Below, piece after piece: positions 2,908 to 32,053 of a stretch of 35,738 nucleotides of DNA (position 1 is the first letter of the stretch; every line of letters starts with the position of its first letter). The notes beneath the pieces were generated by a model, which saw nothing but the letters and a program-made list of their open reading frames with translations, searched no databases and was not told the DNA's origin. This stretch comes from a virus (Duplodnaviria; Heunggongvirae; Uroviricota; Caudoviricetes): IMG/VR virus record IMGVR_UViG_2778261460_000003; one strand, written 5' to 3'. The position numbers were made by a program, and so were the translations under genes.

Positions 2908-2960
2908 CTGCTCCCTCCCTGTGTGGCATGGTCGCATGTGCGTGCGGAGGGGGTTACTGC

Positions 2961-3000: not shown

Positions 3001-3064
3001 GATTACGCGCGTGGTGGGTGATGATTGTTGCCGAATCATTTAACGGATACAAGGGGCTGAAGCT

Positions 3065-8657: not shown

Positions 8658-8687
8658 AAAACCGCTAATGGTCAGATTAGCGGTTTT
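8658..8687. terminator. Bidirectional rho-independent terminator between convergent U and the invertase
   Basis: Perfect 12-bp stem AAAACCGCTAAT / ATTAGCGGTTTT with a 6-nt loop; T-runs on both strands; the stem includes the invertase stop codon. Confidence 0.55.
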
Positions 8688-9276: not shown

Positions 9277-9303
9277 GATGGATCCCCTGAATAAAAACCG
9301 GGG

Positions 9304-9813: not shown

Positions 9814-9815
9814 GA

Positions 9816-10232
9816 ATGAATAAATTTTATAAAGGCTCTTTCTATCCGGAAGCACTAAAAGATGTATATATCAGCGCCGGTTCATGGCCTGAAAATGGCG
9901 CTGATGTTGATGATGAAACAATGGCAATTTACACAGGCGTAGCGCCAGAAGGCAAAACGCTGGGGGCTGATAAAAATGGTAATCCTGCGTGGATTGATAT
10001 CCCGCCACTCTCCGCTGAACAACAGATTATTCAGGCTGAACAGAAAAGAACGGTATTGCGTTCTATGGCTGATAAGGAAATAGTCTGGAGACAGGATGCT
10101 TTTGATGCGGAAATCGCGACGGCAGAAGAAACCGCCGCGTTATCTGAATGGAAAAAATACCGGGTCTTGCTGATGCGCGTTGATACATCAAATCCCGTCT
10201 GGCCTACGCCTCCGGGGGAGCAGGCCAATTGA
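9816..10232 (+). CDS. Tail fibre assembly protein (alternative, U'-like)
   Basis: Ends ...NPVWPTPPGEQAN (WPxxP tail-fibre-assembly motif); convergent with and overlapping the 3' end of the G-like gene. Start chosen at MNKFYKG. Confidence 0.7.
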   Translation: MNKFYKGSFYPEALKDVYISAGSWPENGADVDDETMAIYTGVAPEGKTLGADKNGNPAWIDIPPLSAEQQIIQAEQKRTVLRSMADKEIVWRQDAFDAEIATAEETAALSEWKKYRVLLMRVDTSNPVWPTPPGEQAN

Positions 10233-10797
10233 TATCCGGCGCGGTGCTGGTATCTGTTGCCGTCACCGCGTCAATGTAATCCAGCACAGCGTTAAGCCGG
10301 GTTGTTTCTGCCTGCGTCAGTTTCCGCCCGGCCTGTAATTTCAGCTGAGTCAGACTAATGGAAGCCATTGCAGCATCAATCAGCAACTGGCGCTGTGCTT
10401 CTGCCGCGTCTACTGCGGCGCTATGCTGTGCCTCGGTATCCGTCACCCATTTCTCACCATCCCATTTATCGTATGGCGTTAACGGTGAAAGCGTGACATA
10501 ACCGTCTTTGATGGCACCGATATAATCCACTGTAACAGCTGCGCCATTTTCGATTGAGTAAACAGTCTCATTGCGATGGTCCTCTTCATGGCTCCATCCC
10601 TTACCCGTGAATACTGCCACTTGCCCCGGAATGTTTTCGCCCGGGTCAATACCAGTGGAACAGGCGGGCATACTTACGCCAGTATTAATATATTCATCAG
10701 ACCAGCCCGTATATTCAGACGTTACTGCATCATAATAAAAACAACGCATATCACCCGGCACTGTAGCCAGTCCATTTTCATCAAAAACAGGTTTCAT
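10204..10797 (-). CDS. G: Tail fibre assembly protein (gpG-like)
   Basis: 197 aa ending ...DINWPAPPEA; directly downstream of H. Confidence 0.8.
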   Translation of the reverse strand: MKPVFDENGLATVPGDMRCFYYDAVTSEYTGWSDEYINTGVSMPACSTGIDPGENIPGQVAVFTGKGWSHEEDHRNETVYSIENGAAVTVDYIGAIKDGYVTLSPLTPYDKWDGEKWVTDTEAQHSAAVDAAEAQRQLLIDAAMASISLTQLKLQAGRKLTQAETTRLNAVLDYIDAVTATDTSTAPDINWPAPPEA

Positions 10798-12386
10798 TAT
10801 TTAGCCCTCACCAGAAAGTTAAATGCAATATTTCGCGGTCTGACAGCAACAAAATTAACACCATCTCCTACTGAGTTACTGGTGTACTGAAATCGAGAGA
10901 AACCTGGCTGGTGTGCTGATATTCCATCGTAATCAGCAATCGCATGGCCGGACCCTTCTGGATAATTACCACCAAATTGCGATAAAGATGTTGCTGCCTG
11001 CCAGCTTAATAATGCTCGCCCACTGTCCGCCCCTCGCCCATCATCCCAGATACGAATGAAGTCACCGCGGGCTTCAGGTAATACCAGCGAAGGAAACACT
11101 TTTGCCAGCACAGGGTAATCAGTGGCAGAGAATTTCGCGCCGTTGAACTTCAAAAACACCATGCCGGACCAGCTTTCGATTACGGTATCTGGCATTGCGG
11201 CGGACGGCCAGAAGAACGGAACGCCAATAGCTGGAGCACCTTCTCCCAAACCAAGGTAATCAAGAACTCCCTGAGTGCTGGTTTTACCAAGAATGGCACG
11301 TCCAACACTTGTCAACGCGGTTAACGCGGCACGATCTGCTCCTGTAAAATATGGGAGTTTATCTGCTGATGTAGCAAGCTCCGCCAGCGCCGTCAGGGTG
11401 GCATCCTTCGGTTGCTTACCCGCAAGCGCGTTAGTCATGGTGGTCGCAAAATTCGGGTCATTGCCCAGCGCCGCAGCCAGTTCGTTCAGCGTGTTCAGTG
11501 CATCAGGTGACGAATCTACAAGTGCGGCAATCGCGGCCATAACGAAAGCCGTGCTTGCGATCTGGGTACTATTAGTCCCCTGTGGCGCTGTTGGTGTTGT
11601 TGGCGTTCCGGTCAGTGCCGGGCTGTTTAATGGTGCTTTCTTGCTCGTTTCATCCATTACCGCCTTAACAGCTTTTGGTGTCGCTGCCAGCGTTTCAGAC
11701 GTGCTGTTCGTGGCGCTACTGAGCTGAACAATCCCTTTTTGTGTTGTGGTGGCGTTCTGGGCGGTATATTTCCCGTCAGCCAGGTCATATGCAGCCTTAA
11801 CTGCTTTCGGTGTTGCGGCCAGTGTTTCTGATTCACTGTTAATTGCACTGCTTAACTGAGTAAAACCTTTTGCGGTCAGCGAGGCGTCCGGGTGACGTCG
11901 TGACTGTTCGTGCTCTGAGATTTTATCATCCACATATTTGCGGGTTGCCAGAATCACAGACGGGTCGATTTTCAGCGTGATGGCTTCGGTGTTCGTGACA
12001 ACCAGAATCATGCGGATAGTCTGGGTGCGTCCACTGCCTTCCTGCAACTGCGGTTTGTACGTTTCCGGGCAGTTTGCCACCGCAATGAGTACACCTTCAT
12101 CATCATAAAGACCAATCTCACGGATCCAGAATCCTCCCTCGTTTTCAGGGATGATTTGCTCCGCAATAATCTGGCTCTGATTGTTAGGGTCAACACTCAG
12201 AAGATTCAGCGGTGCAATGCGTTTCTGGTTAATCAGTTTTGTTTGTGCAGGGTCTGGTGTTGGTAACACACCATTTGCATCACCAACGGCCATTTGCGTC
12301 AGATTCAGCTTACTGCCGAGCATCGTCGCGTTAGCCAGTCGTGCTGCGCCCTGATTAGTCAGAATGGCGTAGTATTTCACTGTCAT
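10797..12386 (-). CDS. H: Tail fibre protein (gpH-like), constant N-terminus plus currently fused variable C-terminus
   Basis: 529 aa with repeated TQLSSA..SETLAATPKAVKA motifs typical of fibres; contains the left crossover site inside the coding sequence. Confidence 0.85.
   Translation of the reverse strand: MTVKYYAILTNQGAARLANATMLGSKLNLTQMAVGDANGVLPTPDPAQTKLINQKRIAPLNLLSVDPNNQSQIIAEQIIPENEGGFWIREIGLYDDEGVLIAVANCPETYKPQLQEGSGRTQTIRMILVVTNTEAITLKIDPSVILATRKYVDDKISEHEQSRRHPDASLTAKGFTQLSSAINSESETLAATPKAVKAAYDLADGKYTAQNATTTQKGIVQLSSATNSTSETLAATPKAVKAVMDETSKKAPLNSPALTGTPTTPTAPQGTNSTQIASTAFVMAAIAALVDSSPDALNTLNELAAALGNDPNFATTMTNALAGKQPKDATLTALAELATSADKLPYFTGADRAALTALTSVGRAILGKTSTQGVLDYLGLGEGAPAIGVPFFWPSAAMPDTVIESWSGMVFLKFNGAKFSATDYPVLAKVFPSLVLPEARGDFIRIWDDGRGADSGRALLSWQAATSLSQFGGNYPEGSGHAIADYDGISAHQPGFSRFQYTSNSVGDGVNFVAVRPRNIAFNFLVRAK
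11241..11266. repeat. gix/hix-like inversion crossover site (left site, inside H)
   Basis: TTCTCCCAAACC-AA-GGTAATCAAGAA; 14-bp perfect inverted repeat with 9344-9357. Confidence 0.5.
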
Positions 12387-16449: not shown

Positions 16450-16838
16450 GCCGGATAGGCTCTGTGTGGTAACTGAAAATGCGGTCCGTCTTTCAGAGTC
16501 TTCCAGTCGCCGCCCCATTCCACCGGAATACTCAGTTCCCGGCTGGCCTGTCTGAATGCTGCTGCGATTTTTTCGTACAGTGGCCATTCCCATGACACCT
16601 GGCTGCCGATATAAGCCACAACATCCACGGCATGCCCCGTAAGGTGGCGGCTGTTCATGGTCTGGCTCTTACCCGTGGCCACCAGTTGCTTCTGGCGGTA
16701 ACGGCTGCGCAACCCTTCGGTGATACCAAAATCCACTTCCGAAATTTCCAGTGCCCGTCGGGTCACTTTCACCAGATCAGGATTTACGCCCTGCAAATTC
16801 TTTTCGCTCCGGCTGCTGAATTTAAATGTGTTGCTCAT
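16446..16838 (-). CDS. Endolysin, peptidase M15-type (L-alanyl-D-glutamate peptidase-like)
   Basis: HLTGHAVDV and DGPHFQ motifs (His/Asp/His zinc site of M15 peptidases); lysis-cassette position between holin and spanins. Confidence 0.7.
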   Translation of the reverse strand: MSNTFKFSSRSEKNLQGVNPDLVKVTRRALEISEVDFGITEGLRSRYRQKQLVATGKSQTMNSRHLTGHAVDVVAYIGSQVSWEWPLYEKIAAAFRQASRELSIPVEWGGDWKTLKDGPHFQLPHRAYPA

Positions 16839-17158
16839 TCGTCCTTCTCCTTCCCCCTGCGATTAAAGGCCGCAATAACCTTGTCGCGTGCTTTCTCTGC
16901 GCCCATAAAACCGATTGATGCGCCGATAAACGTCACGGCATCTTCAGGAAACCCGAAGAAGCGCAACGACCCGGCCACGGCCATGGCAAGAACGCCGCAC
17001 GCCAGCGATCCCGTTACGGTCTGAACCAGTGTTCGTCCGTCATAAAGACTCATCAGCGCGGAAATGCTGACCGCCGCGCCTACTGCATACACCGTTGGCA
17101 GGTGGTCAAAGAGCCACGCAATAACCTGCTCTGTGATCCCTGTTTGAATGGTGCTCAC
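16835..17158 (-). CDS. Holin (putative; GTG start)
   Basis: About 107 aa with two or three hydrophobic helices and a charged C-terminus; GGGGGGAG RBS before GTG at 17158; overlaps the endolysin start. Confidence 0.5.
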   Translation of the reverse strand: MSTIQTGITEQVIAWLFDHLPTVYAVGAAVSISALMSLYDGRTLVQTVTGSLACGVLAMAVAGSLRFFGFPEDAVTFIGASIGFMGAEKARDKVIAAFNRRGKEKDE

Positions 17159-17160
17159 TG

Positions 17161-17361
17161 CTACTCCCCCCACAACTGAATCATTTCTCGTTTTTTCTTC
17201 TCCGGCTCCGGCATCTCCACTTCCTGCCCGGCGTCCAGAAATACCTGCTGGCAGAGTCCGGGGTTGGCATCCAGCACCTTTTCGGTGACGCCCTGCGTCG
17301 TGCCGTAGTACCGGAAACAGAGCGAATCCACGGTGTCGCCTTCCAGTGCCTTCACTTTCAT
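17161..17361 (-). CDS. X: Tail protein X (gpX-like)
   Basis: MKVKALEGDTVDSLCFRYYG... about 66 aa; P2 X position between L and the holin. Confidence 0.7.
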   Translation of the reverse strand: MKVKALEGDTVDSLCFRYYGTTQGVTEKVLDANPGLCQQVFLDAGQEVEMPEPEKKKREMIQLWGE

Positions 17362-17864
17362 CAGCACAACTCCGCAAAGATTCGCGGGCGGCACAGAATG
17401 TCAGAGATGGCCCAGCTCACATCGCGCCACAAATCCGATGTCTGTATATCCAGTGCGTCCGCCCGGCGGTCGCCCTTATCCGTTGTGTCCGCATCGCGGT
17501 AACGCTCCAGAATCAGGGCGCGTGTGGCGGTATAAACGGCATTGCGCCAGTGCCAGAGATTGACGCTTTCTCCGTTAATTACGGGTGCCGGAACATCGGC
17601 CAGCGTCTGATGGCCAGCCGCCTGCTGTTCCTGCTGCCACGCTTCCAGCTCGCGGGTAACGTGTGCCACGGCCCCAGTGGCGGTATGCAGCAGGCGGGAG
17701 GTGGTCACACGGCCCGGCAGTCGTACCGCCAGACGCAGCTCGCGCAGCACAATATCCGGCCAGAATGCACCCGCTGAAATACGGGTATCACCATCATCGG
17801 TATCGGTGATGTCGTCCTCTGCGGGTCCGGGGTTGGTTCTGGCAACCATACTCATGGGGTTCAC
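17361..17864 (-). CDS. L: Head completion / stabilisation protein gpL
   Basis: 167 aa; P2 L-like size and position. Confidence 0.8.
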   Translation of the reverse strand: MNPMSMVARTNPGPAEDDITDTDDGDTRISAGAFWPDIVLRELRLAVRLPGRVTTSRLLHTATGAVAHVTRELEAWQQEQQAAGHQTLADVPAPVINGESVNLWHWRNAVYTATRALILERYRDADTTDKGDRRADALDIQTSDLWRDVSWAISDILCRPRIFAELC

Positions 17865-17956
17865 TCCTGAAAAAATCGGGCGGTGGGTGCGCGGTGTAAA
17901 CGGTCACGGAGTCAAACCGGAACACCGCGCACGCCGCCCGCTGACGGGGTCAGTCG

Positions 17957-18757
17957 TTAACCGCGCTTCGCCTTCTGCGTCGCGGTGGTTTTTCGTGTTG
18001 CAGGCTTCCGCGTTGTCTTTTTACTTTTGCTGCTTTCGTCCTGCGCCTGCGGTGTGCTGGCGTCTTCTGGTTCGGCTGCGGAATCGGCTTTTTTCAGGGC
18101 GCGGGAAAGGGTTGCAATCTCGCGTTTCACACCTGCGTTCGGGTTCAGGTGCATCGCTTCGCGCAGCAGCTTCAGTGATGAGGCCATGCTGTCCGCATCG
18201 GTCAGGCCACGACGGGCAAAGGCACACGCCTTGCATAATTTGGCGCGCACTTCGTCCGGCATGTCCTGGTCGGTGACAATCTCCCGGAGGGTATCCAGTG
18301 GTTCGATAAAGGCGGATAAATCCGCGTCGGCATCCGTCCCGGCCTGCGTCAGTACCGGGTTGCAGATTTCTTCGGTCAGTACCGTGGCAGCAGTACGGCC
18401 AAAGTTATCCGGCATAATGAGGTTGTGACGGACCACATACGCACCAATACGCAGCGCCAGCGGAAGATCGCCGCAGTCAATCGCCCACACCATCAGCGTG
18501 GCAATCACTTCATCCTGCTGCCCGCCGTCAGCCTCCAGCGTTCCCTCAATCCAGCCGGAAAAGTCCGGCAACAACTCTTTTTTGATGGAGGCTTTCGCGC
18601 TTCTGGCCTGTACGCCCTTAAGCCGGGCCTGTGCCAGACGCAGACGATACAGCACCTCTTCATGCGCGGTACGCGCGGCGTGGTCCACGCCTTCATTCGC
18701 CCGGCCTGCGCGCTGTGCCATCACGTTCTGCCAGTGTTGCTGTGCAGGAGTAATCAT
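17957..18757 (-). CDS. M: Terminase endonuclease (small) subunit gpM
   Basis: 266 aa with basic C-terminal tail; P2 M position between N and L. Confidence 0.8.
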   Translation of the reverse strand: MITPAQQHWQNVMAQRAGRANEGVDHAARTAHEEVLYRLRLAQARLKGVQARSAKASIKKELLPDFSGWIEGTLEADGGQQDEVIATLMVWAIDCGDLPLALRIGAYVVRHNLIMPDNFGRTAATVLTEEICNPVLTQAGTDADADLSAFIEPLDTLREIVTDQDMPDEVRAKLCKACAFARRGLTDADSMASSLKLLREAMHLNPNAGVKREIATLSRALKKADSAAEPEDASTPQAQDESSKSKKTTRKPATRKTTATQKAKRG

Positions 18758-18802
18758 TTTTTCTCTCCGTTACAGGCGGGCATGATGCCCGCCGTGAGTT
18801 GA

Positions 18803-19855
18803 TTAGCTGTCGGCGAACTTCAGGCCAGTGACCATCGCGCACTTGCCATAGTCTTCAACGACATAAGCGTCATTGATGGACTGATAGGTGGCGATGCGGT
18901 TGTATTCCGGTTCGTCTTTCATCAGACGACGCATTGAACCTTTCTGCCAGTAAATCGACAGGTTGTTGAACGAGGTGATCAGCATCGTTGCATCCGGGAA
19001 GAACGGCGCAAGGAACACGCCCAGCCCGCCAATGGTGCGCGATGACAGGATGAGCTGCCCGGCAAGTAATTCCGCATTGGGATTCTGGCCGCTGATGCTG
19101 TTCAGCACGGGCAGACGCAGCGAGTTAAACAGGTTGCGCCCCATAATCACCACGAGGTCGTCAGCTTCCTTGTGCCATTCATCCAGCAGGGATGAACGCG
19201 CGTCCTGTACCAGTGCATCAGCGTTTGCATACTTACCCGCGTGCGCCACGGTGTTGTCCATGTTGCGGGAGGTCAGCGTCACGTCATTCATAACGCGTTC
19301 GCTGGCGTCGGTTCTGATGTGCTCCAGCCAGCCCACGTTAACGTCCTGAAGCAGCTTGTTGGTGCTGAAGTTGGACTCATCCGCGTGAGACGTGCCGTTG
19401 AAACCGATCATGATGCGGTCAAGCGCCACCTGTCGGGCAATCTGTGCGCTGATGCGGGACTGAAAATCAGGGTGTGCCGACCAGGCATCAAGCTGCGGAT
19501 ACGAAATAAACGTGTCGTAGTTCACCTGTTCGCACTGGTATTTGCGGTTTTTCAGATCAACCACATTATTCGGGTTACGGCGTTTTGTTCCGTCATAACT
19601 GGTATTCGTGCGCGCAATTGGTCCTGTGGTATCCGGGAGGATTTTTTCGCCTTTCTGGTCGGTCACGCCGATCACGTTAATTCTTTTCGTAAATTCGGTA
19701 CTTTCCTTTGAGGCGTTTTCAAAACGCTGCTGCACCGCGGGTTCCACGGTAAATCGCGATACCAGTGCAGATACCGGGATATTGTTAAGCGACGCCTGCT
19801 GCGCCATATAGCAACCCAGCTTGTTGCGGGTAATATCTGACATCACCAGATTCAT
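18803..19855 (-). CDS. N: Major capsid protein precursor gpN
   Basis: 350 aa; P2 N-like size and position. Confidence 0.85.
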   Translation of the reverse strand: MNLVMSDITRNKLGCYMAQQASLNNIPVSALVSRFTVEPAVQQRFENASKESTEFTKRINVIGVTDQKGEKILPDTTGPIARTNTSYDGTKRRNPNNVVDLKNRKYQCEQVNYDTFISYPQLDAWSAHPDFQSRISAQIARQVALDRIMIGFNGTSHADESNFSTNKLLQDVNVGWLEHIRTDASERVMNDVTLTSRNMDNTVAHAGKYANADALVQDARSSLLDEWHKEADDLVVIMGRNLFNSLRLPVLNSISGQNPNAELLAGQLILSSRTIGGLGVFLAPFFPDATMLITSFNNLSIYWQKGSMRRLMKDEPEYNRIATYQSINDAYVVEDYGKCAMVTGLKFADS

Positions 19856-20869: not shown

Positions 20870-22621
20870 ATGATTCAGGACGCTTTTGTGCGCCAGCGTG
20901 CGCGGCAACTTTACTGGCAGGGTTATCCGCCCGCAGAAATATCACGTCTGATGGGAATAAACCCGAACACGATTTATGCGTGGAAAAAACGCGACCAGTG
21001 GGATGAAACGCCACCCGTGCAGCGTGTCACGCAGTCCATCGATGCGCGCCTCATCCAGCTTACTGAAAAACAGAATAAAACAGGCGGTGACTTTAAGGAA
21101 ATAGACCTGCTGACACGGCAGCTTAAAAAGCTGCATGATGGCCAGCCGGATGTGATGGCCGCAGGAAAGAAAGGCCGGGCGAAAAAACTCAAAAATCATT
21201 TCACGCCGGAACAGATTGCCGCACTGCGGGAAAAAATCATCAGCAGGCTGGAGTGGCATCAGCGAAGCTGGTTTGACTCCCTGACCCTTTGCAGGGAAGC
21301 CGGGATACGTAACAGGATGATCCTGAAATCCCGACAGATTGGGGCGACCTGGTATTTTGCACAGGAAGCACTGCTGATGGCGCTGCGTGACGATGTGGCG
21401 CAACCTTACCAGCGTAACCAGATTTTTTTGTCTGCGTCGCGTCGTCAGGCGTTCCAGTTTAAAAGCATTATTCAGAAGGCCGCGGCTGAAGTTGATGTGG
21501 AGCTGAAAGGGGGCGATAAAATCATCCTCTCCAACGGCGCAGAGCTGCATTTTCTCGGCACTTCTGCTGCGTCGGCACAGTCCTATACGGGCAATTTTTA
21601 TTTTGATGAATTTTTCTGGGTCAGTCGCTTTGCTGAACTGCGCAAGGTGGCTGGCGCTATGGCAACCCTCAGCGGACTGCGGCGCACCTACTTCTCGACG
21701 CCATCCACCGAAACGCACGAGGCATACGCCTACTGGAACGGCGACCGCTGGAACGAGAAAAAGGCCTCGCATAAACGCCAGCGTTTTTCTGTGGACTGGA
21801 AAACGCTGCATAACGGGCTTATCTGCCCTGACCGGACGTGGCGGCAAATTGTCACGCTGGAAGATGTGGTTAATCACGGCTGGAAACACACCGATATTGA
21901 TGAAATTCGTGATGAAAACACCGAAGACGAGTTCCTCAATCTCTATATGTGTGAGTTTGTCCGCGAAGGGGAATCGGCATTTAACCTGAATATCCTGATT
22001 GGCTGTGGCGTTGACGGATACGACGACTGGAAAGACTGGAAACCTTTTGCTCCCCGCCCGATGGGGAATCGTCCGGTATGGATTGGGTATGACGCAAACG
22101 GCAGCAGTGGCAACGGCGACAGCGGCGCTGTGTCCGTGGTGGTTCCTCCGGCTGTTCCTGGTGGCCGTTTTCGAACGGTGGAGACGCGACGCGTTCAGGG
22201 GCTGGAGTTTGAAGAACAGGCCAGAGTCATTGAAGAGTTCACGTGTCGCTACAACGTGGAACACATCGGCATTGATGTGACGGGCGGGAACGGGGAGGCT
22301 GTTTATCAGATAGTGAAACGGTTTTTCCCTGCTGCTATTCCGTACACCTTCACGCTGTCATCAAAACGGTCGCTGGTACTGAAAATGCTGCAAATAATGC
22401 GTGCCGGGCGGTGGGAATACGATCGCGCCGAACGCGAGCTGGTCGCGGCCTTTAACGCCGTGCGTAAGGTGAAAACACCGGGCGGCTTTATCACTTACGA
22501 AACGGACCGCGCGAGGGGGATCAGCCACGGCGACCTTGCGTGGGCAACCATGCTTGCTGTCATTAACGAACCGATTGGCGGCGAAGGAGAAAACGAGCGT
22601 TTCACGGTTATGGAGTTCTGA
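20870..22621 (+). CDS. P: Terminase ATPase (large) subunit gpP
   Basis: 583 aa; divergent from O as in P2. Confidence 0.9.
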   Translation: MIQDAFVRQRARQLYWQGYPPAEISRLMGINPNTIYAWKKRDQWDETPPVQRVTQSIDARLIQLTEKQNKTGGDFKEIDLLTRQLKKLHDGQPDVMAAGKKGRAKKLKNHFTPEQIAALREKIISRLEWHQRSWFDSLTLCREAGIRNRMILKSRQIGATWYFAQEALLMALRDDVAQPYQRNQIFLSASRRQAFQFKSIIQKAAAEVDVELKGGDKIILSNGAELHFLGTSAASAQSYTGNFYFDEFFWVSRFAELRKVAGAMATLSGLRRTYFSTPSTETHEAYAYWNGDRWNEKKASHKRQRFSVDWKTLHNGLICPDRTWRQIVTLEDVVNHGWKHTDIDEIRDENTEDEFLNLYMCEFVREGESAFNLNILIGCGVDGYDDWKDWKPFAPRPMGNRPVWIGYDANGSSGNGDSGAVSVVVPPAVPGGRFRTVETRRVQGLEFEEQARVIEEFTCRYNVEHIGIDVTGGNGEAVYQIVKRFFPAAIPYTFTLSSKRSLVLKMLQIMRAGRWEYDRAERELVAAFNAVRKVKTPGGFITYETDRARGISHGDLAWATMLAVINEPIGGEGENERFTVMEF

Positions 22622-23667
22622 TGAGCAGAAAAAATAAAAAAGTGCGCATGAGTTCACGCATTGATCTCGCTGATGCGCTCAGGAAAGAATCGTCGCTCAG
22701 TGCATTCACATTTGATGGTCCTTATCGCCTGACCGGGCATGACCTGCTGGACAATATGTACTGTGCTGATAACGGGCGGTGGTATGAAACCCCGGTGGAC
22801 TGGTACGGTCTGGCAAGAGCTGCCCGGCAAACGTCCTGGCATCAGTCTGCGCTTTACTTTAAGCGCAATGTATTACTCGGTTGCTACATCCCGCACCCGC
22901 TGCTTTCCCGGCAGGATTTCTCGGCGCTGGCGCTGGACTGGTTTGTGTTCGGTAACGCATTCCTTGAGCTTCGAAGCAATATGCTCGGCGAACCGCTTAA
23001 ATTACGGCACGCCCTGGCGAAATACATGCGACGCGGTAGCGATCTTGAATCATGGTGGTATGTGCAGGATGGCAAGGATGCGTTCCAGTTTCGCCCTGGC
23101 AAAGTGTGCCACCTGATGAATCCTGACATTAACCAGGAAATCTACGGCATGCCGGAATATCTCGGCGCATTACTCTCGGCCAGCCTGTCTCATTCGGCGG
23201 ACATGTTCAGAAAACTGTATTACGACAACGGATCCCACGCCGGGTGCATCATCTACATCGGTGCAGCGCAGGTAAACCGCGAAAGCATGGACTCCCTGAA
23301 AGCAACGCTACAGGGGGCACGTGGTGGTGGTGCGTTTAAAAACGTGCTCATTCATGCGCCCAACGGGGGCAAAGAGGGGGTGCAAATTTTGCCGTTCCAG
23401 CAGATCACCGCAAAGGATGAGTTCATGAATGTTAAGGCGGCATCCCGTGATGATGTGCTGGCTGCGCACCGCGTTCCGCCGCAACTGATGGGGGCGATGC
23501 CGGGCGAAAAAAGTGCGTTTGGTGATGTGGAGAAGGCCGCGCGGGTTTACGCAATTAACGAGCTGATGCCCGTCATGGAGGCCATGAAGCACATCAATGA
23601 CTGGCTTGGCGAGGAGGTGATCCGCTTTAACCCTTACGCACTGTTAGACACCCAGCCCACATCCTGA
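22621..23667 (+). CDS. Q: Portal protein gpQ
   Basis: 348 aa; start overlaps the P stop; last late gene before the cos-region intergenic interval. Confidence 0.9.
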   Translation: MSRKNKKVRMSSRIDLADALRKESSLSAFTFDGPYRLTGHDLLDNMYCADNGRWYETPVDWYGLARAARQTSWHQSALYFKRNVLLGCYIPHPLLSRQDFSALALDWFVFGNAFLELRSNMLGEPLKLRHALAKYMRRGSDLESWWYVQDGKDAFQFRPGKVCHLMNPDINQEIYGMPEYLGALLSASLSHSADMFRKLYYDNGSHAGCIIYIGAAQVNRESMDSLKATLQGARGGGAFKNVLIHAPNGGKEGVQILPFQQITAKDEFMNVKAASRDDVLAAHRVPPQLMGAMPGEKSAFGDVEKAARVYAINELMPVMEAMKHINDWLGEEVIRFNPYALLDTQPTS

Positions 23668-24140
23668 CGCGCTTCGCTTGTCTGCTGCTTCGCCGGGGCA
23701 TAAAAAATTTATGCCCCGACTCTCCAGCTCCTGTATCAATCAGATAATTTCACGACGCCTTCCAGCTTATTGCCATCATTGACGGTCAGGCTCTTACGCA
23801 ATCCCATCGCGCTGACTGCATGTTCTCGCCGCCTCAGTGCGATTTTGACGGCCTTATCTGCCACCCCATCAAATCAAAAGCCCTCACGTCTTTTTCACGC
23901 TCAGCGTGAGAAATACAGCCATTCTGTTGTGTCGCTGCGACATCGTTCAGGGGATGCTATTTACCCCCTGAAACGCGGGCTGTTCCCCCGTCACCTGCGC
24001 GCAGAAAAAGCGCGTTTTTTTGTGCACGCACGGATCCCTGACGGATCCAGCCGCCACGCGGGCCAGAAGGGCAAAAGTTCGTTCAAAAAAATTGTGCAAA
24101 TTTGTGCACTATCGTGCATGTAAATTCATAAAAAAATTAC

Positions 24141-24162
24141 AGAAAAAAGGCCGCTTTCGCGG
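24141..24162 (-). terminator. Rho-independent terminator downstream of the S8 peptidase gene
   Basis: GGCCGC-tttc-GCGGCC stem, followed on the minus strand by a U6 run. Confidence 0.55.
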
Positions 24163-24171
24163 CCATAAAAA

Positions 24172-26376
24172 TTACGTGTCGAGAGAAATTTGTGTGCGCA
24201 GTTGAATAGGATTCAGAATTGTATATCGCTGGCGAATAACATTATATAAATCAAAGTCTTTTACCCTTACGCTTATTACCATCGCATATTGCATATCAGG
24301 GGCTGAAACTCCCTTAACATGGCGCGAAGAATCTCGGGCATGATACCGTATATCAAAAACTGGATCGCTTAATAATGTATCAGCACTGAACTTTTTGCTT
24401 CTGTGCAAACAAGTTTCCCACTTATGACCTTCACTCCTACACTCCCTTTCAGTCTTATACTGGCTTTTTTGACCAAAGAAATCATCTGTATCGGTATCGT
24501 CAAGGCCGAATCTTGGGCGGAAAGTTACCTGCATACCGGCCCTTGTATAGTTTACTGAATGTTCAGGATCTACTGGGGTTTGAATGCATAAAGTAGCGGT
24601 AAGCTCAAATGCTTCGTCAAAGGGAACATCAGGGAATGGGATCGGTGCCCTTAAATATTTATTTTTTGCTAATGAACCATAGTAAATTACTGTAGCAGTA
24701 TCATTTGGACAATCGATTAAAACGTTAGGATCCTCACTAAACCGTCCCCAACCGATATGTTCACGCGAATATTTTCTTGATGTTTCAGCATGATGAACAA
24801 GCAACGCTTTCAATGCAATGGTGTTCAATGGAGTTCCTGATAGAGCCGCAACTCCAGCGGCCGTTCTCAATGCTAATGGAGAGGCATAACTGGTTCCTTG
24901 AACTCCAACTATAGAACCAAGCAGAGGGTTGTAAGTGTAAAAAGGCTCGTCGTCGCTTCCACCAAAAATAACACCATCAGGTTTAACGAATCCGGGGCTT
25001 CTGCCTGGCCCAATACAGCTATATGGTGCCCGCCCCCATTTTTCACCGCTACGATCAGCAGCACCAATCGCTAGCGCGTTTACCATATCGGAAGGAGGTT
25101 GTATTCTCGCTGCATCACCGTCCTCATTGCCATCATTCCCAACAGCAACAGTAAGTAATATCCCATGCTTAGCACAGATTTGGTCTAAAACAGCAGTCCA
25201 TACATGAACCTCATCATCACCAATTGGAAGATGAGGACCAATACTTAGATTAGCGAACTTATAGTCACCACTATCAAGAACGGACTGTATTTTCTTAAGG
25301 ACATCAAATAAATCCCAATTGCCATTGTCACCTGATGTCGGTGAAAGAACTCTATAATGATCTACATTCATAAACGGTCTTTTAAAAGAAGGTGCATTTT
25401 CCTCGACACGTCCGAATAAGAAAGTGGATGTCACTTCATTACCGTGCTGCAATAATAATCCGCTTGTTTCTTTGGTGTCTGGATACACGTATTCCGTAAC
25501 CCAATTACTCAAGTCAGCTGTCCCCAAGCCACCATCAAAAATGGCAATACGTTCGGATTCAAGAACAGCTTTAGAATTAGGGAGCTCCGGTGTAACTATA
25601 TTAGATAACTTTCTGACAATGTTCGGCTGAGTACACCTGAGAGACGGCATCGGCCGCACAACGCGGATTAATGAAAAATCGAGTGTTTTTTTCATATCTT
25701 CAGGTCGCGCGTGTGCAACGATGAAAGTCAGCCCACCAACTTGGATTCTACTTTTGTAATCAACAGAGACATCATATTGTGCCGCATAGCTAATATAGGC
25801 TTTAACGATATCATCGTCTTCAACCCCAGCATGAAGAACCACTTCAAATTTTATCAAATCACTTTTCGCATGCTCAAAATTGCGTGCTCTCTCTTTTCCT
25901 TCAAAAAAGCTAACACTTTCAATTTCGATCAAATCCTTTTGTACGCCCTTCGGAGCTGTAGGGGAATTTAAAATTTCCTTAAATCTTATAACGGCATCAT
26001 CATCACCGCTAACAAACAGTTGCGCCGTTACTAAGTCCTTATTCTGATCGCACTGACGTGCCGCTTTCCGTGGGCGAATGATTACCTGACGGCTACCGAC
26101 ATCCCGTAAACCTGTCGCTCTAAGCAATCCTTCCGGAAAGTAGCTTTTACCCAAAAACGCTGGGTGTAAAGTTAAATTGAATACACTCTCCCCCCTTGGC
26201 TTAGCCGCATCATCCAAACTGCGAAAGCGTGAGAGTAAAGTATCAATCTCTGGGTTTAAATGCTCCCTTACTTCTTCAAGAGTATAGGGATAGCGCTTAC
26301 CATCCCTTCCTTTAGGCAAAGGTTCCTTTTTTGTCAGAACATGACCGTTACCTAAAAGTAAGTTCCTTTCCATCAT
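24172..26376 (-). CDS. Subtilisin-like serine peptidase (S8 family) with N- and C-terminal extensions, 734 aa
   Basis: Motifs IAIFDGGLG (Asp), LLQHGNEV (His), VAVGNDGNEDG (oxyanion Asn), GTSYASPLALRTAAG (Ser); AT-rich; 4-nt overlap with the upstream ATPase gene. Confidence 0.8.
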   Translation of the reverse strand: MMERNLLLGNGHVLTKKEPLPKGRDGKRYPYTLEEVREHLNPEIDTLLSRFRSLDDAAKPRGESVFNLTLHPAFLGKSYFPEGLLRATGLRDVGSRQVIIRPRKAARQCDQNKDLVTAQLFVSGDDDAVIRFKEILNSPTAPKGVQKDLIEIESVSFFEGKERARNFEHAKSDLIKFEVVLHAGVEDDDIVKAYISYAAQYDVSVDYKSRIQVGGLTFIVAHARPEDMKKTLDFSLIRVVRPMPSLRCTQPNIVRKLSNIVTPELPNSKAVLESERIAIFDGGLGTADLSNWVTEYVYPDTKETSGLLLQHGNEVTSTFLFGRVEENAPSFKRPFMNVDHYRVLSPTSGDNGNWDLFDVLKKIQSVLDSGDYKFANLSIGPHLPIGDDEVHVWTAVLDQICAKHGILLTVAVGNDGNEDGDAARIQPPSDMVNALAIGAADRSGEKWGRAPYSCIGPGRSPGFVKPDGVIFGGSDDEPFYTYNPLLGSIVGVQGTSYASPLALRTAAGVAALSGTPLNTIALKALLVHHAETSRKYSREHIGWGRFSEDPNVLIDCPNDTATVIYYGSLAKNKYLRAPIPFPDVPFDEAFELTATLCIQTPVDPEHSVNYTRAGMQVTFRPRFGLDDTDTDDFFGQKSQYKTERECRSEGHKWETCLHRSKKFSADTLLSDPVFDIRYHARDSSRHVKGVSAPDMQYAMVISVRVKDFDLYNVIRQRYTILNPIQLRTQISLDT

Positions 26377-27455
26377 TTAATCCCCCACTTTTGTAATTTA
26401 TTCGCGATTGTTGGATGTGAAACACCAACTAATTCAGCTATCTTCCTATTTGAAAAACCGTCAAAATGATATTTAATTATATTGAGATCATTATCGCTAA
26501 ACTCATCCAATGAAACCCTCTCCGTAATTACGGCTTCTATTAATGAGCTTTCAAATGGAATATTTCTAAGTACCTCATTCTTTTTGGAGAAATTCAAAAT
26601 ACGGTTAATGATGGCAAAGGACATGCCATCTAATAATGGTGCAAGTTTTTTAGATAGTTCAGGTTCAATATTATGATTGACTAAATATCTATCTATCAGT
26701 TCTACTGATGGCATATTAAATTTAAGGATGTGCTCAAATCGACGCCAAACAGCCGGATCTAAGATATCAGGGTGATTAGTCGCAGCAACAAGAAGCGAGG
26801 TCGCTGGCCACTCATCTATGGTCTGTAGGAGTACAGTAACTAAACGTTTTAATTCTCCAACGTCCCTGTCATCATCACGTCTTTTTGCAACAGCATCAAA
26901 TTCATCAAGCAAAAGGACACATGGTTTCTCTTTGGCATAATCCATAACGGATTTAATATTATTACCTGTTTTTCCCAAAAGAGAACTCATTACAGATGAG
27001 AGATCCAATGTTAAAAGAGGTAAATTTAACTTTGCAGCAAGCCAATGTGCGGACATTGTTTTGCCTACGCCTGGCGGGCCAGAAAGTAAAACCGTCTTCA
27101 CAGGTTCAAGACCAGCTTTGAACAAAGAAACCGCATTCTCTCTTTCGTTAACAATTGACTCCAGCTTCTTTGAGATATCCGTATTCCATACAGGTTCTTC
27201 AACAATTGCGTTGACAGATGTTTCCTGCAAAAGGTTTCGTCTGGAGTCTCCATCCACAGGCATAGGAGCCTTACTAGATGCCCCACGTAATACTGTTCCC
27301 TCAGCAACTAACGAAGCCAGCTTAGAAGCTAAAGCCTCATCATTTTTACGGATGTTGTTAATCATCTTTCTGCATAGGAGTGTAAATGCATTTGCGTTGC
27401 CTTTGATGCCTTGCTCGATGAGTTTGAAAAGTTCATCCTCCCTCACGTTTACCAT
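26373..27455 (-). CDS. AAA+ ATPase with C-terminal HTH-like region, 360 aa
   Basis: Walker A GPPGVGKT, Walker B VLLLDEFD; C-terminal NRKIAELVGVSHPTIANKLQKWG resembles an HTH; AT-rich. Confidence 0.8.
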   Translation of the reverse strand: MVNVREDELFKLIEQGIKGNANAFTLLCRKMINNIRKNDEALASKLASLVAEGTVLRGASSKAPMPVDGDSRRNLLQETSVNAIVEEPVWNTDISKKLESIVNERENAVSLFKAGLEPVKTVLLSGPPGVGKTMSAHWLAAKLNLPLLTLDLSSVMSSLLGKTGNNIKSVMDYAKEKPCVLLLDEFDAVAKRRDDDRDVGELKRLVTVLLQTIDEWPATSLLVAATNHPDILDPAVWRRFEHILKFNMPSVELIDRYLVNHNIEPELSKKLAPLLDGMSFAIINRILNFSKKNEVLRNIPFESSLIEAVITERVSLDEFSDNDLNIIKYHFDGFSNRKIAELVGVSHPTIANKLQKWGIK

Positions 27456-27759
27456 AAAACCCCCAATAAAACATCAGCTTGTGTAAGCTGGTAACTACAT
27501 TAATGAAAATCATTGACTAATGTTACCACTCTTGCTGGCGTAATTCAAAGAGTATCCTCACTTTTTTACTGTATGGATAATCAGCATAAAATCTATCCAG
27601 TTGGGTTACTCGAACATACTGTCAATACTTGTTTCCAACGATTGATCAGTTCTACAGTTTTATCTCCTTCACTTGTGTTGGCAGCATGCTTATTCCTGAA
27701 CCAGCTCGATTACTTGGCCATTTGAGAAAGATGTGTAGATCTTCTGATGGTTTGTATTG

Positions 27760-27791
27760 GAACGGGGTGCATAGTGATTTGCACCCCGTTC
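27760..27791. other. Strong GC-rich hairpin (12-bp perfect stem) between the ParR-like and ATPase genes
   Basis: GAACGGGGTGCA-tagtgatt-TGCACCCCGTTC, followed by TTTATGTTAT on the plus strand. Confidence 0.5.
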
Positions 27792-27833
27792 TTTATGTTA
27801 TGGGATTGGTGGCAGGGCGAATACGCCCTGATG

Positions 27834-28145
27834 TTATTCAGGAAATAACGCCCGGATATTTCCGGCCATCTGACTGGTTATCTGTGCGGTTGATACTGGC
27901 TGTGACGCGGGGCGTTCTGTCCTGGTTTGTGTCACTGATAACACCTCATCATCAGCCCATGCAGCCAGTCGGTAAGCCTCTGCCGGATTCATTTTCAGAA
28001 GTGCCAGCCCGGCCAGAAAAGCCACGCGTTGGCCGCTTTTGCGGGCTTCTGGTGTAAGGCTGTCCAGCCAGGCGCATGCTTCTCCTTCGTTCTTGACGGC
28101 GGTGGGCTTCAGATAGAAACTTATCCGTCTGGTTGGAGTCGTCAT
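27834..28145 (-). CDS. parR: ParR-like centromere-binding adaptor protein
   Basis: RRISFYLKP...LDSLTPEARKSGQRVAFLAGLAL...RALFPE parallels my recollection of R1 ParR (RRTIAFKLNP...LDSIPQGERS...ALTAGLAL...RSLFPKE); directly downstream of the ParM-like gene. Confidence 0.6.
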   Translation of the reverse strand: MTTPTRRISFYLKPTAVKNEGEACAWLDSLTPEARKSGQRVAFLAGLALLKMNPAEAYRLAAWADDEVLSVTQTRTERPASQPVSTAQITSQMAGNIRALFPE

Positions 28146-28149
28146 TGGT

Positions 28150-29109
28150 TTACTCCTTGTCCATTGCGTACAGCCCATTAACCAGAGCAAACTGTGGCAC
28201 CCCGTCCGCGATGAAAGTCGCATTAACTCCGCAGGCTTCGCGGATAGCGGGTGCCACAATCTCCGCCCCTCCACCGACAACCATCACCCGCCCGTAACCC
28301 GAAAAAACCGCCAGCGCGCGGATCACGCGTTGTTTCAGTGTTTCTTCCTTTTCACGAATAACCGCCATCAGGCTGGCGTAATGCGCGTCATTGTGGATGT
28401 GCTGGCGCAGCCAGGCTTCATCATGGCGATGTTCGATAATGGTATTGGCGATGTGGTGACTGGTGCGCATACCGTTAGTGGCCATCACCGACAGTACTGC
28501 ATCGGCCATCAGAGAAACGCCTACGTGTGGATCGCAAAACACCTGGCTGATACCTGCCAGTTGCCCCTGAACCTTTGCCACATCCAGCGTGGTTCCGCCC
28601 AAATCCACAATCAGCAGGGATTCAAACGGACTCATGTCAGCCAGTGCCTTAAAGCCAGCCGGAATGGATTCAGGCATAACCCGCACGTTACGGATAGTGA
28701 ATGCCTCACCGTTCTGGTACTCCACCGGGCGCATAACGTTCGCTTTTTTGCGGTTGATGTTGGCCATGTCCGGCTGGGCGTTAGTGTCGAAATATTCGCT
28801 CAGTGGCAGGGTGACAACCACATCCACTTCCTGTGGCGTGATGCCTGATTTGACCAGCGCGTGATGAATGGCAATGACATTCACATCGCTGTACTGGTAT
28901 TGCGTGTCGGTCGTCTGGACAAAGCGATCGCTGACCGGATCAAAACCATAGCGCACGCCATCAAGCATGTAGTTCGCAGGCTGCGAGCCACCGAACGGCG
29001 CAGACCATTCCGACTTGAAGCTGTTCGGGCTGATGGCGTTGCGGCGTTCGCCGTTTTCAGTCCATGCCAGCTTGATGTTGGTGGAGCCGTCGTCGATACA
29101 AATTTTCAT
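28150..29109 (-). CDS. parM: ParM/StbA-like actin-fold segregation ATPase
   Basis: N-terminus MKICIDDGSTNIKLAW...ISPNSFKSEW...YSDVNVIAIHHAL closely parallels ParM of plasmid R1 (MLVFIDDGSTNIKLQW...) as I recall it. Confidence 0.75.
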   Translation of the reverse strand: MKICIDDGSTNIKLAWTENGERRNAISPNSFKSEWSAPFGGSQPANYMLDGVRYGFDPVSDRFVQTTDTQYQYSDVNVIAIHHALVKSGITPQEVDVVVTLPLSEYFDTNAQPDMANINRKKANVMRPVEYQNGEAFTIRNVRVMPESIPAGFKALADMSPFESLLIVDLGGTTLDVAKVQGQLAGISQVFCDPHVGVSLMADAVLSVMATNGMRTSHHIANTIIEHRHDEAWLRQHIHNDAHYASLMAVIREKEETLKQRVIRALAVFSGYGRVMVVGGGAEIVAPAIREACGVNATFIADGVPQFALVNGLYAMDKE

Positions 29110-29140
29110 GTCGATTTTCCTTATGTTGGTTAATTAACCG

Positions 29141-29252
29141 TTTACGGGATTTTTAAATCCCGCTTTCGCCTGTTTTGTGCGCGCTTCATATATCGCGGCG
29201 TGTTTTTTGCTCATTTGCGGGATTTGTGAATCCCGTTTCTGTCTGTTTTTTG
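29141..29252. repeat. Two approx. 38-bp direct repeats, each with a CGGGATTT-N-AATCCCG palindrome (candidate ParR-binding / parC-like sites)
   Basis: 29141-29179 and 29214-29252 share about 31 of 38 positions, 73 bp apart; one lies between A and parM, the other inside the 3' end of A. Confidence 0.4.
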
Positions 29253-32053
29253 TTGCCACTGGTCAGGCTACCCCGCAGCAGGTCTGCTTTGCGGCGGGCG
29301 CGTTCAGTGGTTTCACTGATTCTCTGTGCGTGCTCTGCGTCACGAATGGCGCGCAGCATGTCAGAAAGCACGGTAACGGGTGTTTTCATGGTGTTCTGGT
29401 CCTGCTGAAGTGTGGATGCCAGGCGTGCGGCGGCTTCGGGGTCTGATGCCCCGAGCTGTGCCAGATAGCTGGCGACCGGGTTATGGCGGATCTCCGTGCT
29501 GCTTACGCCGTGATTACGGCTCAGGCGCTGCCAGAGCTGCGTGATTCGGCTGTCCGGGCGGGTATCCGGTTTGCGTACAATTTCAAATCCCTGCGGTGCA
29601 ATGATGCTGCCGTCAACGTACAGGCTGCCGCCCCGTAACAGGTGCTGCATCTGCTGTTCACCGATATGCAGGCCGAGAGATTCGGCAGACTCCCGCCATT
29701 CTTTAGCGAGTAATTCGTGGTTATCAGGCAAAGGCTGTGGCTGTTTGCGGCTCTGTGTCCAGTTCTGCATTTCATCACTGCTGTTTTTGGCCTGTTTGTC
29801 ACGCAGCGAACGCATCAGTGCCCGGCGTTCGTGCCGTTTCAGTGAGCGCATCCATTCATTCACTTCAATGCCGTCAGGGAGCTGCGGCCACGGTGCTGGC
29901 CGTTCTTCCGGCTGTTCTGTCCCGTTGTTGTCCGTTTCCTGTACACGGGGACAGTTATTGCCACGAGTCCAAGGGGCGGCAGGGCCGCCCTGAAGGTCAA
30001 AACCATTTTCGCGGGTGCTGTCCTCCGCTTCCGGTTTACGTCTTACCAGCTTCCAGTTATCCGGATGCGTGCACACACGGGAGGATTCCCCGATGAATGG
30101 CGACCAGATCCCGTAAATCTGTACACTCTGTTCGCCGTAATCGTTCAGCTCATCTGCGAGGTCGTAGGCTGTGCGAATCAGGTAGTCCTTGCGCGGAACA
30201 AGTACGCCACCCTGTTTTTCAATGTAGGTGGCAAAACACCCGGCATCAGCGGCAGCAAGAACCGCATCCATTGCGTCATCCTTCAGCCGTTGCGGGCCTT
30301 CCGGGTTGCGTGCCATCTGGCTGGCAAGGCGGCGGAGTTCACGCCACACCTGACGGGAGGGGATGCCAAAGAACTGGAACTGGCGGACCCGGTGAAGGCG
30401 CGCCCAGCCGATGGCGCGCTCCACGCTCTCGGCCATTGATTTACCTGTTTCGTGGTCAACGCGTGGCTTGCCCGTTTTCGGGTCGATGCCATCCACGGCG
30501 CGGCTGTCCAGGTTCTTTCCGATGTAGGTGGCGATGTAGCTGGTTGGCGTGCCTTTTGAGCCGTCGACGTACTCCGCCTTAAAGCGTGGGGTAATATCAT
30601 CACCCAGCTCGTGACGATCTTCCTGAATGGCAATATCGCGGGTGTGGGACACAATGGTGTCGATTTCTTCCGGATGAGCAAAGACCATCATATGCCAGTG
30701 CACGGTGCCGTCATGGTGAGGCTCTACCGTGCGGATGCCATACCAGCGCAGGCCGTCGCGGTTCAGTTTCTTGCGGACCGCTGCAAAAAACGTGTTAACC
30801 AGGTAATCGCTGGAGTCGCGCATGGTGGCCCCGTTCCATTTGGGATTCGGATGACCGTTCTCTGTTGTGGCGTGGTATTTTGACGGGCAGGTGACAGTCA
30901 GAAACACCGCTTTGTCGCCACGGGCTTCGGCCAGAAGTTCCAGCCCCTTCATGGTGGCCATCATTTCTGCCTTACGGTGAACCGGGTTACTTACTCCCGC
31001 GTAATACACTGTCTCGAGAGCAATCGTGAATCCGTCTTCGTTTTCCAGCATGAAACTTTTCAGGAAATCGCGTGTTTTCTCGCGCTGCGCGCGAAACTCG
31101 CTTAATGCGTCCTGACTCAGATAGGGCGATGTTTTTCTGGAAACCAGACAGGCGGCGCGGAGTTGTTCTTCCCGCCACTCGCAACGTAACAGCCACAGTT
31201 TGCGTTTCCACCATTCCGCACAGGTCAGGCGAAGGATTGCGCCCGGCAGCAGCTCCGTGTCCGGTTCGTTCCTCCGGTCTTTGTCTGTTGTCAGTGCGTC
31301 ATAATGTGGAGGCATGGCGTGCAGGTGTAACGCCATGCGGGCCAGCATCTGATACGCCTTCAGCGTTACATCCATGGTCAGCTCGCCATCAGTCGCGCCA
31401 AAGCTATCGCAGAGTTTTTCGAAGGTGCTGCTGAACATCGCCGCCGTCATGGTGGCCAGCGTCTGTATCTGGTGTTTGTTGAGCTGCGGCAGGTAAAGCA
31501 AATCGTCCAGGCGTTCGCGTCCGGTAAGGGAGCGATAACCCGGTGTCAGCCAGCGGTGATCGGTGCGTTCCAGGCGTTCGAATATTTTGCGCAGGTTTCC
31601 GCGCGCGTAGCGTTCAGCCTGCCAGCTCTTTTTGCCTTTCTGACGATCGGATTCCTGTTTTTTGCGCAGGAAAGAGAGGTGGCGGCTCAGAGGTTCACGC
31701 AGATAAACGGGAAGCACTTTCAGTGTGGCAAAAGCACGGGCCACCGGGTCTTGTTCTGTTGCCTGACGCTTGCTGATGATGCTTTGTGCCAGCTTTTCAC
31801 GCTGTCCGGCTTCCTCAAGGGATGCCATGAGTTTTTTACCCACGGTGGATTGTGCGAAAAATGCTTCCTCCTTCGCTTCCTGTTCTTCCAGGGCCTTTTT
31901 GTCTGCCTCAAGGTAGTAACGGATGGCGCGTTGCAGGTCGGTTTCAGTTTCCTGCCTGTGCTCCGTAAATCTGGCCGGATCAATGGCTGGTCGTGGTTCA
32001 TTCCAGCTCCATGCAAACTCACTCATGGCTGGTATCCCGTCACGCGCTGCCAC
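29186..32053 (-). CDS. A: Replication initiation endonuclease gpA (rolling-circle HUH family)
   Basis: HWHMMVF (HUH-like) and TSYIATYIGK (Y-x3-Y twin-tyrosine) motifs as in P2 A; start codon uncertain (32053 or 32026). Confidence 0.85.
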   Translation of the reverse strand: MAARDGIPAMSEFAWSWNEPRPAIDPARFTEHRQETETDLQRAIRYYLEADKKALEEQEAKEEAFFAQSTVGKKLMASLEEAGQREKLAQSIISKRQATEQDPVARAFATLKVLPVYLREPLSRHLSFLRKKQESDRQKGKKSWQAERYARGNLRKIFERLERTDHRWLTPGYRSLTGRERLDDLLYLPQLNKHQIQTLATMTAAMFSSTFEKLCDSFGATDGELTMDVTLKAYQMLARMALHLHAMPPHYDALTTDKDRRNEPDTELLPGAILRLTCAEWWKRKLWLLRCEWREEQLRAACLVSRKTSPYLSQDALSEFRAQREKTRDFLKSFMLENEDGFTIALETVYYAGVSNPVHRKAEMMATMKGLELLAEARGDKAVFLTVTCPSKYHATTENGHPNPKWNGATMRDSSDYLVNTFFAAVRKKLNRDGLRWYGIRTVEPHHDGTVHWHMMVFAHPEEIDTIVSHTRDIAIQEDRHELGDDITPRFKAEYVDGSKGTPTSYIATYIGKNLDSRAVDGIDPKTGKPRVDHETGKSMAESVERAIGWARLHRVRQFQFFGIPSRQVWRELRRLASQMARNPEGPQRLKDDAMDAVLAAADAGCFATYIEKQGGVLVPRKDYLIRTAYDLADELNDYGEQSVQIYGIWSPFIGESSRVCTHPDNWKLVRRKPEAEDSTRENGFDLQGGPAAPWTRGNNCPRVQETDNNGTEQPEERPAPWPQLPDGIEVNEWMRSLKRHERRALMRSLRDKQAKNSSDEMQNWTQSRKQPQPLPDNHELLAKEWRESAESLGLHIGEQQMQHLLRGGSLYVDGSIIAPQGFEIVRKPDTRPDSRITQLWQRLSRNHGVSSTEIRHNPVASYLAQLGASDPEAAARLASTLQQDQNTMKTPVTVLSDMLRAIRDAEHAQRISETTERARRKADLLRGSLTSGNKKQTETGFTNPANEQKTRRDI

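Follow-up and report, generated by a model that had tools for sequence, protein, structure and literature searches.

A prophage-borne ATPase–subtilase gene pair assigned by sequence to the IetAS family and carried in the variable cargo slot of a P88-like element

Systems of the IetAS type combine an AAA+ ATPase, IetA, with a peptidase of the S8 (subtilase) family, IetS, and, according to papers that cite the founding work, date from 2009 and 2020 (Yamamoto et al. 2009; Gao et al. 2020). In the Agrobacterium plasmid pTiC58 the toxin is IetS, with IetA as its antitoxin; the homologous SgiAT of Salmonella SGI1 is a functional toxin–antitoxin (TA) system (PMC5006074). Mutants in ietA could not be constructed, and defence requires the protease activity (PMC13069673); a toxic protease neutralized by its ATPase is likewise implied for ietHAS. 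The ietAS pair of B. cereus acts by abortive infection, triggered by yosG/YosG of SPbeta (bioRxiv 10.1101/2022.08.27.505566), and the ietAS of E. coli ECOR52 was cloned by Wu et al., who noted that ietAS sits in prophages. In a catalogue of systems found at the P2 hotspot (Rousset et al. 2022, Table S5; PMC9122126) ietAS is listed as no. 7, the seventh most common system there, with 400 loci. The pair considered here lies in the virus record IMGVR_UViG_2778261460_000003, a stretch of 35,738 nt analysed as a whole and referred to below as the window; a first-pass annotation, made from the letters alone, had pointed to it as a candidate defence system. The TA roles, the protease requirement, abortive infection and the phage-protein trigger are taken from the literature on other IetAS systems, and the present analysis establishes to which family the pair belongs, that its active sites are intact, how the operon is built, and that the cassette lies in a cargo slot and is exchanged horizontally. 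The cassette consists of the following features:

26373..27455, minus strand: ietA, the AAA+ ATPase gene (360 aa)
24172..26376, minus strand: ietS, the S8 peptidase gene (734 aa)
26373..26376, minus strand: stop/start overlap ATGA, 4 nt common to ietA and ietS
24149..24164, minus strand: hairpin and T-run resembling an intrinsic terminator, 8 nt past the ietS stop
27456..27716, minus strand: presumed leader/promoter region upstream of ietA that moves with the cassette, within the high-identity block shared with phage phiT5282H

By profile matches, gene order and homologue searches, the pair can be classified as an IetAS ATPase and protease anti-phage/TA system of the kind already described. 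The likeness to IetAS, which the first-pass annotation had pointed to, is borne out by the PADLOC-type profile search it had proposed, in which both proteins are matched near full length: IetA by PDLC02196 (3.6e-89, 297.8 bits; residues 7-356 on profile positions 5-370 of 374) and IetS by PDLC02197 (6.6e-41; residues 22-707 on positions 24-718 of 749). The top NCBIfam matches, also near full-length, are "anti-phage ATPase IteA" (IteA_antiphage, 253.1 bits) and "S8 family anti-phage peptidase IteS" (IteS_antiphage, 115.7 bits); the family is spelled IteA/IteS in NCBIfam and IetA/IetS in the literature and PADLOC. Pfam recognizes AAA in IetA (9.6e-31) and Peptidase_S8 in residues 288-544 of IetS (4e-17), and in PHROGs each protein has a full-length family, both of them function-unknown families. 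Database searches return hundreds of homologues of equal length (~360 and ~733 aa). The two genes are adjacent and co-directional with the ATPase gene first, an order also found in Chromobacterium, phiT5282H and pTiC58.

The pair itself has been catalogued before. The IetA of Table S5 is identical to that of the window, the IetS is identical over its printed part, and the comment on the pair reads "ietAS (Gao et al, 2020)". The accessions given there, WP_000248600 and WP_000970615, are those annotated in E. coli A1, whose locus is 100% identical to the window at the DNA level, and the catalogued pair is flanked by StbA (WP_001673486) and Plasmid_stab_B (WP_024242821). Since identical proteins were catalogued at the same P2-hotspot position, the pair was already known: system, family and hotspot position alike have been on record since 2022 and are not new. 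Little is therefore added as discovery, system type and exact pair in the exact slot having been catalogued before. The main text of a 2026 paper on P2/P4 hotspots (PMC13586616) does not mention ietAS.

In IetA the first-pass annotation had seen Walker motifs and an HTH (helix-turn-helix)-like segment at the C-terminus, and these are located at residues 126-133 (Walker A, GPPGVGKT), 181-187 (Walker B, LLLDEFD) and ~321-356 (HTH). Conservation in both proteins was assessed in alignments of 40-42 homologues of 41-91% identity. Invariant in IetA are G126, K132, T133, D184, E185, the sensor-1 residue N227 and the arginine-finger residues R238/R239, as well as G333, S335, R337, I339, A340, H347, P348 and T349 of the HTH. 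The Pfam model HTH_50 scores 26.7 bits at the C-terminus, marginally under its cut-off of 27, and the homologues of ~360 aa mostly have a match to HTH_23 or HTH_50. The fold predicted by AF2 (AlphaFold2; predicted local distance difference test, pLDDT, 78) comprises a three-helix N-terminal bundle (6-52), an AAA+ module of the classical clade and the terminal HTH. The best Foldseek matches of the model are FtsH, p97 D2, PAN and Rpt, and the predicted fold would place IetA in the unfoldase clade (FtsH, p97, PAN). Profile searches of the PDB sequences found no IetA structure, only generic AAA+ relatives. By analogy with the described systems, IetA is the presumed antitoxin/regulator.

The complete S8 set attributed to the 734-aa protein is confirmed: D281, H311, N414 and S496 are invariant in 42 homologues. 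The structure prediction for IetS (pLDDT 83; predicted template modelling score, pTM, 0.87) complements that of IetA, as the first-pass annotation had proposed for both proteins, and IetS is laid out as an N-terminal alpha/beta region (~60-245), a catalytic domain (~272-545) and a C-terminal beta-rich region (~550-734). A predicted beta-alpha-beta-beta-alpha-beta unit (~175-242) stands directly before the catalytic domain, and the N-terminal region contains one or two ferredoxin-like units with a likeness to the I9 propeptides of subtilases, so that IetS is structurally likened to pro-subtilases. The likeness to I9 is structural only, because a Pfam search with the isolated segments 1-270 and 548-734, together with four or two homologues, gave nothing meaningful at E <=10. 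Profile searches of the PDB sequences found generic subtilisin relatives and no IetS structure. No signal peptide or transmembrane (TM) segment is predicted in IetA or IetS; IetS is accordingly predicted to be cytoplasmic, and its reading as a secreted protease was dropped. It is, again by analogy, the presumed toxin/effector.

The HTH and the additional protease domains had been put forward, with reserve, as possible marks of a distinct variant, a suggestion that finds no support. The IetAS profiles extend over the HTH at the end of IetA and over both terminal regions of IetS, hundreds of homologues share them, and only from the pTiC58 pair do they set the window pair apart. Being standard in the subfamily, they are not the mark of a new variant, and the pair is best placed, on sequence grounds, in an HTH-bearing sub-clade of IetAS with a protease of ~735 aa.

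The remaining observations on operon structure also survived scrutiny. The overlap of the two reading frames (27455..26373 and 26376..24172) reads AAATGATGG, the TGA stop of ietA overlapping the ATG of ietS, with a candidate Shine-Dalgarno (SD) sequence, GGGGGA, 8 nt upstream of the ietS start; the arrangement points to translational coupling. The GC content is 0.390 in ietA and 0.427 in ietS, compared with 0.537 in the remainder of the window, and that at third codon positions (GC3) is 0.33 and 0.34, well below the 0.65 of parM and the 0.63 of gpA. The pair has its own terminator, with the G+C-rich hairpin GGCCGCGAAAGCGGCC followed by TTTTTTCTGT (24164..24149 on the minus strand), and its own upstream region, an AT-rich spacer of 378 nt that separates the ietA ATG (27455) from the parR stop (27834). 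A consensus sigma-70 scan of the minus strand of this spacer yielded no passing site; a weak candidate promoter, TTGAAT (27548..27543) and TAACAT (27525..27520) with a spacing of 17, was picked out by eye only and has 8 of 12 matches. An imperfect inverted repeat in the ietA leader (27497-27507 / 27513-27523) could be a candidate operator for the HTH of IetA. No RNA genes were detected when the whole window was scanned with Rfam and for tRNAs.

From its sequence the element in the window is identified as a P88-like prophage of the P2 family (Xuanwuvirus, Peduoviridae) of E. coli. The surroundings of the cassette are as follows:

24126..27783, no strand: variable cargo slot holding the ietAS cassette, bounded by the backbone breakpoints against P88-like phages
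22621..24125: portal gene and conserved downstream block
27834..28145, minus strand: ParR/StbB, plasmid-type partition gene
28150..29109, minus strand: ParM/StbA, plasmid-type actin-like partition gene

P88-like phages share the non-coding block after the portal gene (23668..24125) at 92-94% identity. Backbone likeness to these phages stops at ~24125 and restarts against P88 at 27784, from where it spans parR, parM and the 955-aa gpA. At this place P88 and vB_EcoM-705R2 carry other cargo, small open reading frames (ORFs) unrelated to ietAS, so that 24126..27783 is a variable slot and ParMR belongs to the backbone. ParMR is conserved in the backbone of the window prophage, P88 and 705R2, and its GC content of 0.55 is backbone-like. 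The first-pass annotation had placed the pair between gene A and cos, at the position of the P2 tin/old cargo. The hotspot position is upheld by the other cargo of related P88-like phages and by the entry in Table S5; the placement holds as a slot between the portal block and gpA, but parR and parM (27834..29109) intervene between ietAS and gpA (29186..32053, minus strand), and cos was not located. Neither the 19-nt cohesive-end sequence of P2 nor a relaxed core of it, which served as the cos consensus, has a match in the window, and the cos-proximal placement is therefore a matter of synteny only. At the right junction of slot and backbone there is a perfect hairpin with 12-bp arms, GAACGGGGTGCA ... 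TGCACCCCGTTC (27759..27792), which may act as the terminator of parR or mark a boundary of recombination.

The ietAS cassette is exchanged horizontally. Enterobacter phage phiT5282H has the segment 24100..27716 at 96.7% identity, on a backbone that is only ~72% identical; there the cassette lies between the portal gene and gpA, without ParMR. Relatives at 85% protein identity are found on a Plesiomonas plasmid, and a Tn7-like element of Chromobacterium vaccinii carries an AAA-then-S8 pair that is 56% identical. A presumed defence cassette of 3.6 kb thus moves between plasmids, transposons and phages that belong to different genera of the P2 family. The operon is present, always on the chromosome, in 32 of 5426 complete E. 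coli genomes (~0.6%), and in 31 of these carriers, the enteropathogenic E. coli (EPEC) reference strain E2348/69 among them, it is at least 99% identical. In E. coli A1 an IS66-family element, ISCro1 (16635..19250 of the A1 record), is inserted in the portal gene and the prophage is for this reason probably defective; the operon there is still 100% identical to that of the window.

We consider it likely that the pair functions as a prophage-borne IetAS system in which a cytoplasmic subtilase toxin, restrained by the ATPase, is freed on phage sensing and brings about abortive infection. Under this scheme ietA and ietS would be transcribed from the cargo slot as one translationally coupled operon, and IetS, a cytoplasmic subtilisin-type serine protease, would be toxic when uncontrolled. 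In uninfected lysogens IetA, a classical AAA+ protein of the hexamer type, would keep IetS inactive by ATP-dependent binding or remodelling, and its C-terminal HTH probably autoregulates the operon as well. Upon infection by a competing phage, the control by IetA would be broken, whether by a phage protein or through some effect of the infection; the freed IetS would cleave essential host and/or phage proteins, and phage growth would no longer be supported in the infected cell, with the lysogen population and the resident prophage protected as the outcome. How IetA restrains IetS, what the HTH does and whether IetS is gated like a zymogen by an internal I9-propeptide-like fold are the parts of this scheme that we infer.

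Several points weigh against it. Both proteins fall short of the NCBIfam equivalog cut-offs, IetA with 253.1 against 510 bits and IetS with 115.7 against 900 bits. The models concerned (NF042959/NF042956, IteA/IteS) are equivalogs, which stand for the same function as the validated proteins; because both scores lie under the cut-offs, function is transferred here from diverged relatives, and the window pair would represent a diverged IetAS clade outside the immediate clade of the validated protein. Between the IetS of pTiC58 and that of the window BLASTP finds no significant similarity (E = 0.33). The position of pore loop 1 in IetA reads S-L-L-G and lacks the usual aromatic residue, which makes threading activity uncertain. 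Papers up to 2026 describe the mechanism of IetAS as unknown (PMC13069673), no experimental test of the window allele was found in the literature, and Table S2 of Rousset et al., which lists the tested systems, has no ietAS entry. The ietAS of ECOR52 alone gave only limited protection (Wu et al.). Even when up to 3 mismatches are allowed, neither of the primers used for its cloning is present in the window, so that the ECOR52 system is a different locus or allele, and transfer of that test to the window allele was dropped.

In the RefSeq records the clade of the window pair bears only the labels "AAA family ATPase" and "S8 family peptidase", assigned by the Prokaryotic Genome Annotation Pipeline (PGAP). 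Given these generic labels and the NCBIfam scores below the cut-offs, annotation-based surveys will miss this clade.

The best-surviving alternative is that ietAS is mainly an addiction module which, by post-segregational killing, stabilizes the prophage or a plasmid-like replicative form of it alongside ParM/ParR, rather than an anti-phage system. The founding IetAS of pTiC58 and the SgiAT of SGI1 were characterized as stability TA systems (PMC13069673, PMC5006074), the ParR and ParM genes directly adjoin ietAS, and the pair is fully conserved in E. coli A1 although the portal gene is broken by the IS66 element. However, ParMR belongs to the backbone of P88-like phages whatever their cargo, the same cassette is found in phiT5282H without ParMR, the slot is a documented defence hotspot, and SgiAT expressed from its own promoter gave no post-segregational killing (PMC5006074). 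We regard a mainly stabilizing function as plausible but rather unlikely; addiction and defence can coexist and are not mutually exclusive.

Two further alternatives fare far worse. It is highly improbable that the genes form a housekeeping pair without a role in conflict, with the ATPase acting as a maturation chaperone for a subtilase that is either secreted or engaged in processing: signal peptides and TM segments are lacking in both proteins, many kinds of mobile element carry the pair, the full-length matches are to profiles of defence systems, and no gene for a substrate or precursor moves with the cassette. Equally hard to credit is the view that the pair has lost its function and is decaying as a passive passenger of the prophage, as the lack of a strong promoter upstream of ietA in the consensus scan might suggest, given that both frames are intact with all catalytic residues present, that all but one of the 32 complete E. 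coli carriers have the operon at 99% identity or more, and that Rousset et al. counted 400 loci.

Within the preferred reading, an ATPase-restrained toxin freed on phage sensing, the predicted structures allow a more specific and quite tentative proposal, which we hold to be doubtful as it stands: IetS may be an intracellular zymogen in which IetA gates the propeptide-like plug and the HTH links the complex with DNA or with autoregulation. IetA would hold or re-set the plug in uninfected cells and release it on the trigger. If true, such gating would be the first mechanistic model for IetAS, and the allele, common in E. coli prophages, would be a convenient model. The practical value of the locus is as a clean and abundant natural example for the study of the IetAS mechanism.

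Some other parts of the window deserve mention. An ORF of 274 aa (769..1593, plus strand), located in the most AT-rich part of the window (GC content 0.33), lies between ogr (332..592, minus strand) and gpD (1810..3039, minus strand). It has no match in Pfam, PADLOC, PHROGs or NCBIfam; its ~100 homologues across Proteobacteria are all labelled "hypothetical" but for one UniRef entry, "Trypsin-like peptidase". H53, D90 and S208 (GMSGG) do not vary among 24 homologues and follow the H-D-S order of chymotrypsin-fold proteases. The corresponding ogr-gpD region of E. coli EC571 bears the annotation of a TIR-domain protein. The sequence of the ogr-gpD interval suggests a second cargo slot with a candidate single-gene defence protease. 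A Hin/Gin-type serine invertase gene (Resolvase and HTH_7; 8677..9276, minus strand) adjoins a C-terminal tail-fibre fragment (9304..9813, plus strand) and a tail-fibre assembly gene (9786..10232, plus strand), and the segment faces the main tail-fibre genes (10204..12386, minus strand); the arrangement at 8677..10232 resembles the invertible host-range segments G of Mu and C of P1. The gpA-type replication endonuclease (29186..32053, minus strand), an ORF of 955 aa in the window, is recorded for both E. coli A1 and P88 as a coding sequence of 2823 nt; its Phage_GPA domain is confined to residues 194-518, and the C-terminal ~430 aa have no Pfam assignment. At the start of the window an ORF for a toxin of the Hok/Gef family (46 aa; 1..141, minus strand) adjoins ogr, and no Sok-type RNA was found by Rfam at the gathering threshold.

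Of the described systems, the pTiC58 pair was compared with that of the window directly (coordinates 27874-28860 and 28864-31374 of the pTiC58 record). The two IetA proteins are 32% identical over 253 residues (E = 1e-45), but that of pTiC58, at 328 aa, lacks the HTH, its profile match ends at position 322 of 374, and its pore loop reads F-M-G where the window IetA has L-L-G. The pTiC58 IetS has 836 aa and its best PADLOC sub-profile is PDLC02198, unlike the window IetS with PDLC02197; both pTiC58 proteins match the PADLOC IetA/IetS profiles, which is the sole link between the two IetS proteins. Because the pTiC58 IetS differs in sub-profile and in BLASTP similarity, IetAS as now defined appears to be a loose family of several sub-clades. 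In both pTiC58 IetA/IetS and SGI1 SgiA/SgiT the AAA+ antitoxin is encoded upstream of the S8 toxin, as the order in the window would have it. The ietHAS system (Liu-DS4; Nucleic Acids Res 2026, PMC13069673) has the IetA and IetS core in common with the window pair but contains an additional, essential gene for an SNF2-family helicase; in this the window cassette differs, since the ORF list and the PADLOC profiles give no helicase gene in or beside it. The tin/old genes of P2 are prophage exclusion genes located, like the window slot, between the gene A side and the cos/portal side, whereas their proteins are unrelated to IetAS, and the backbone in the window is P88-like with parR-parM between slot and gpA. 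IetAS itself (Gao et al. 2020; PADLOC) is, like the window pair, a two-gene system on mobile elements, the ATPase followed by the S8 peptidase.

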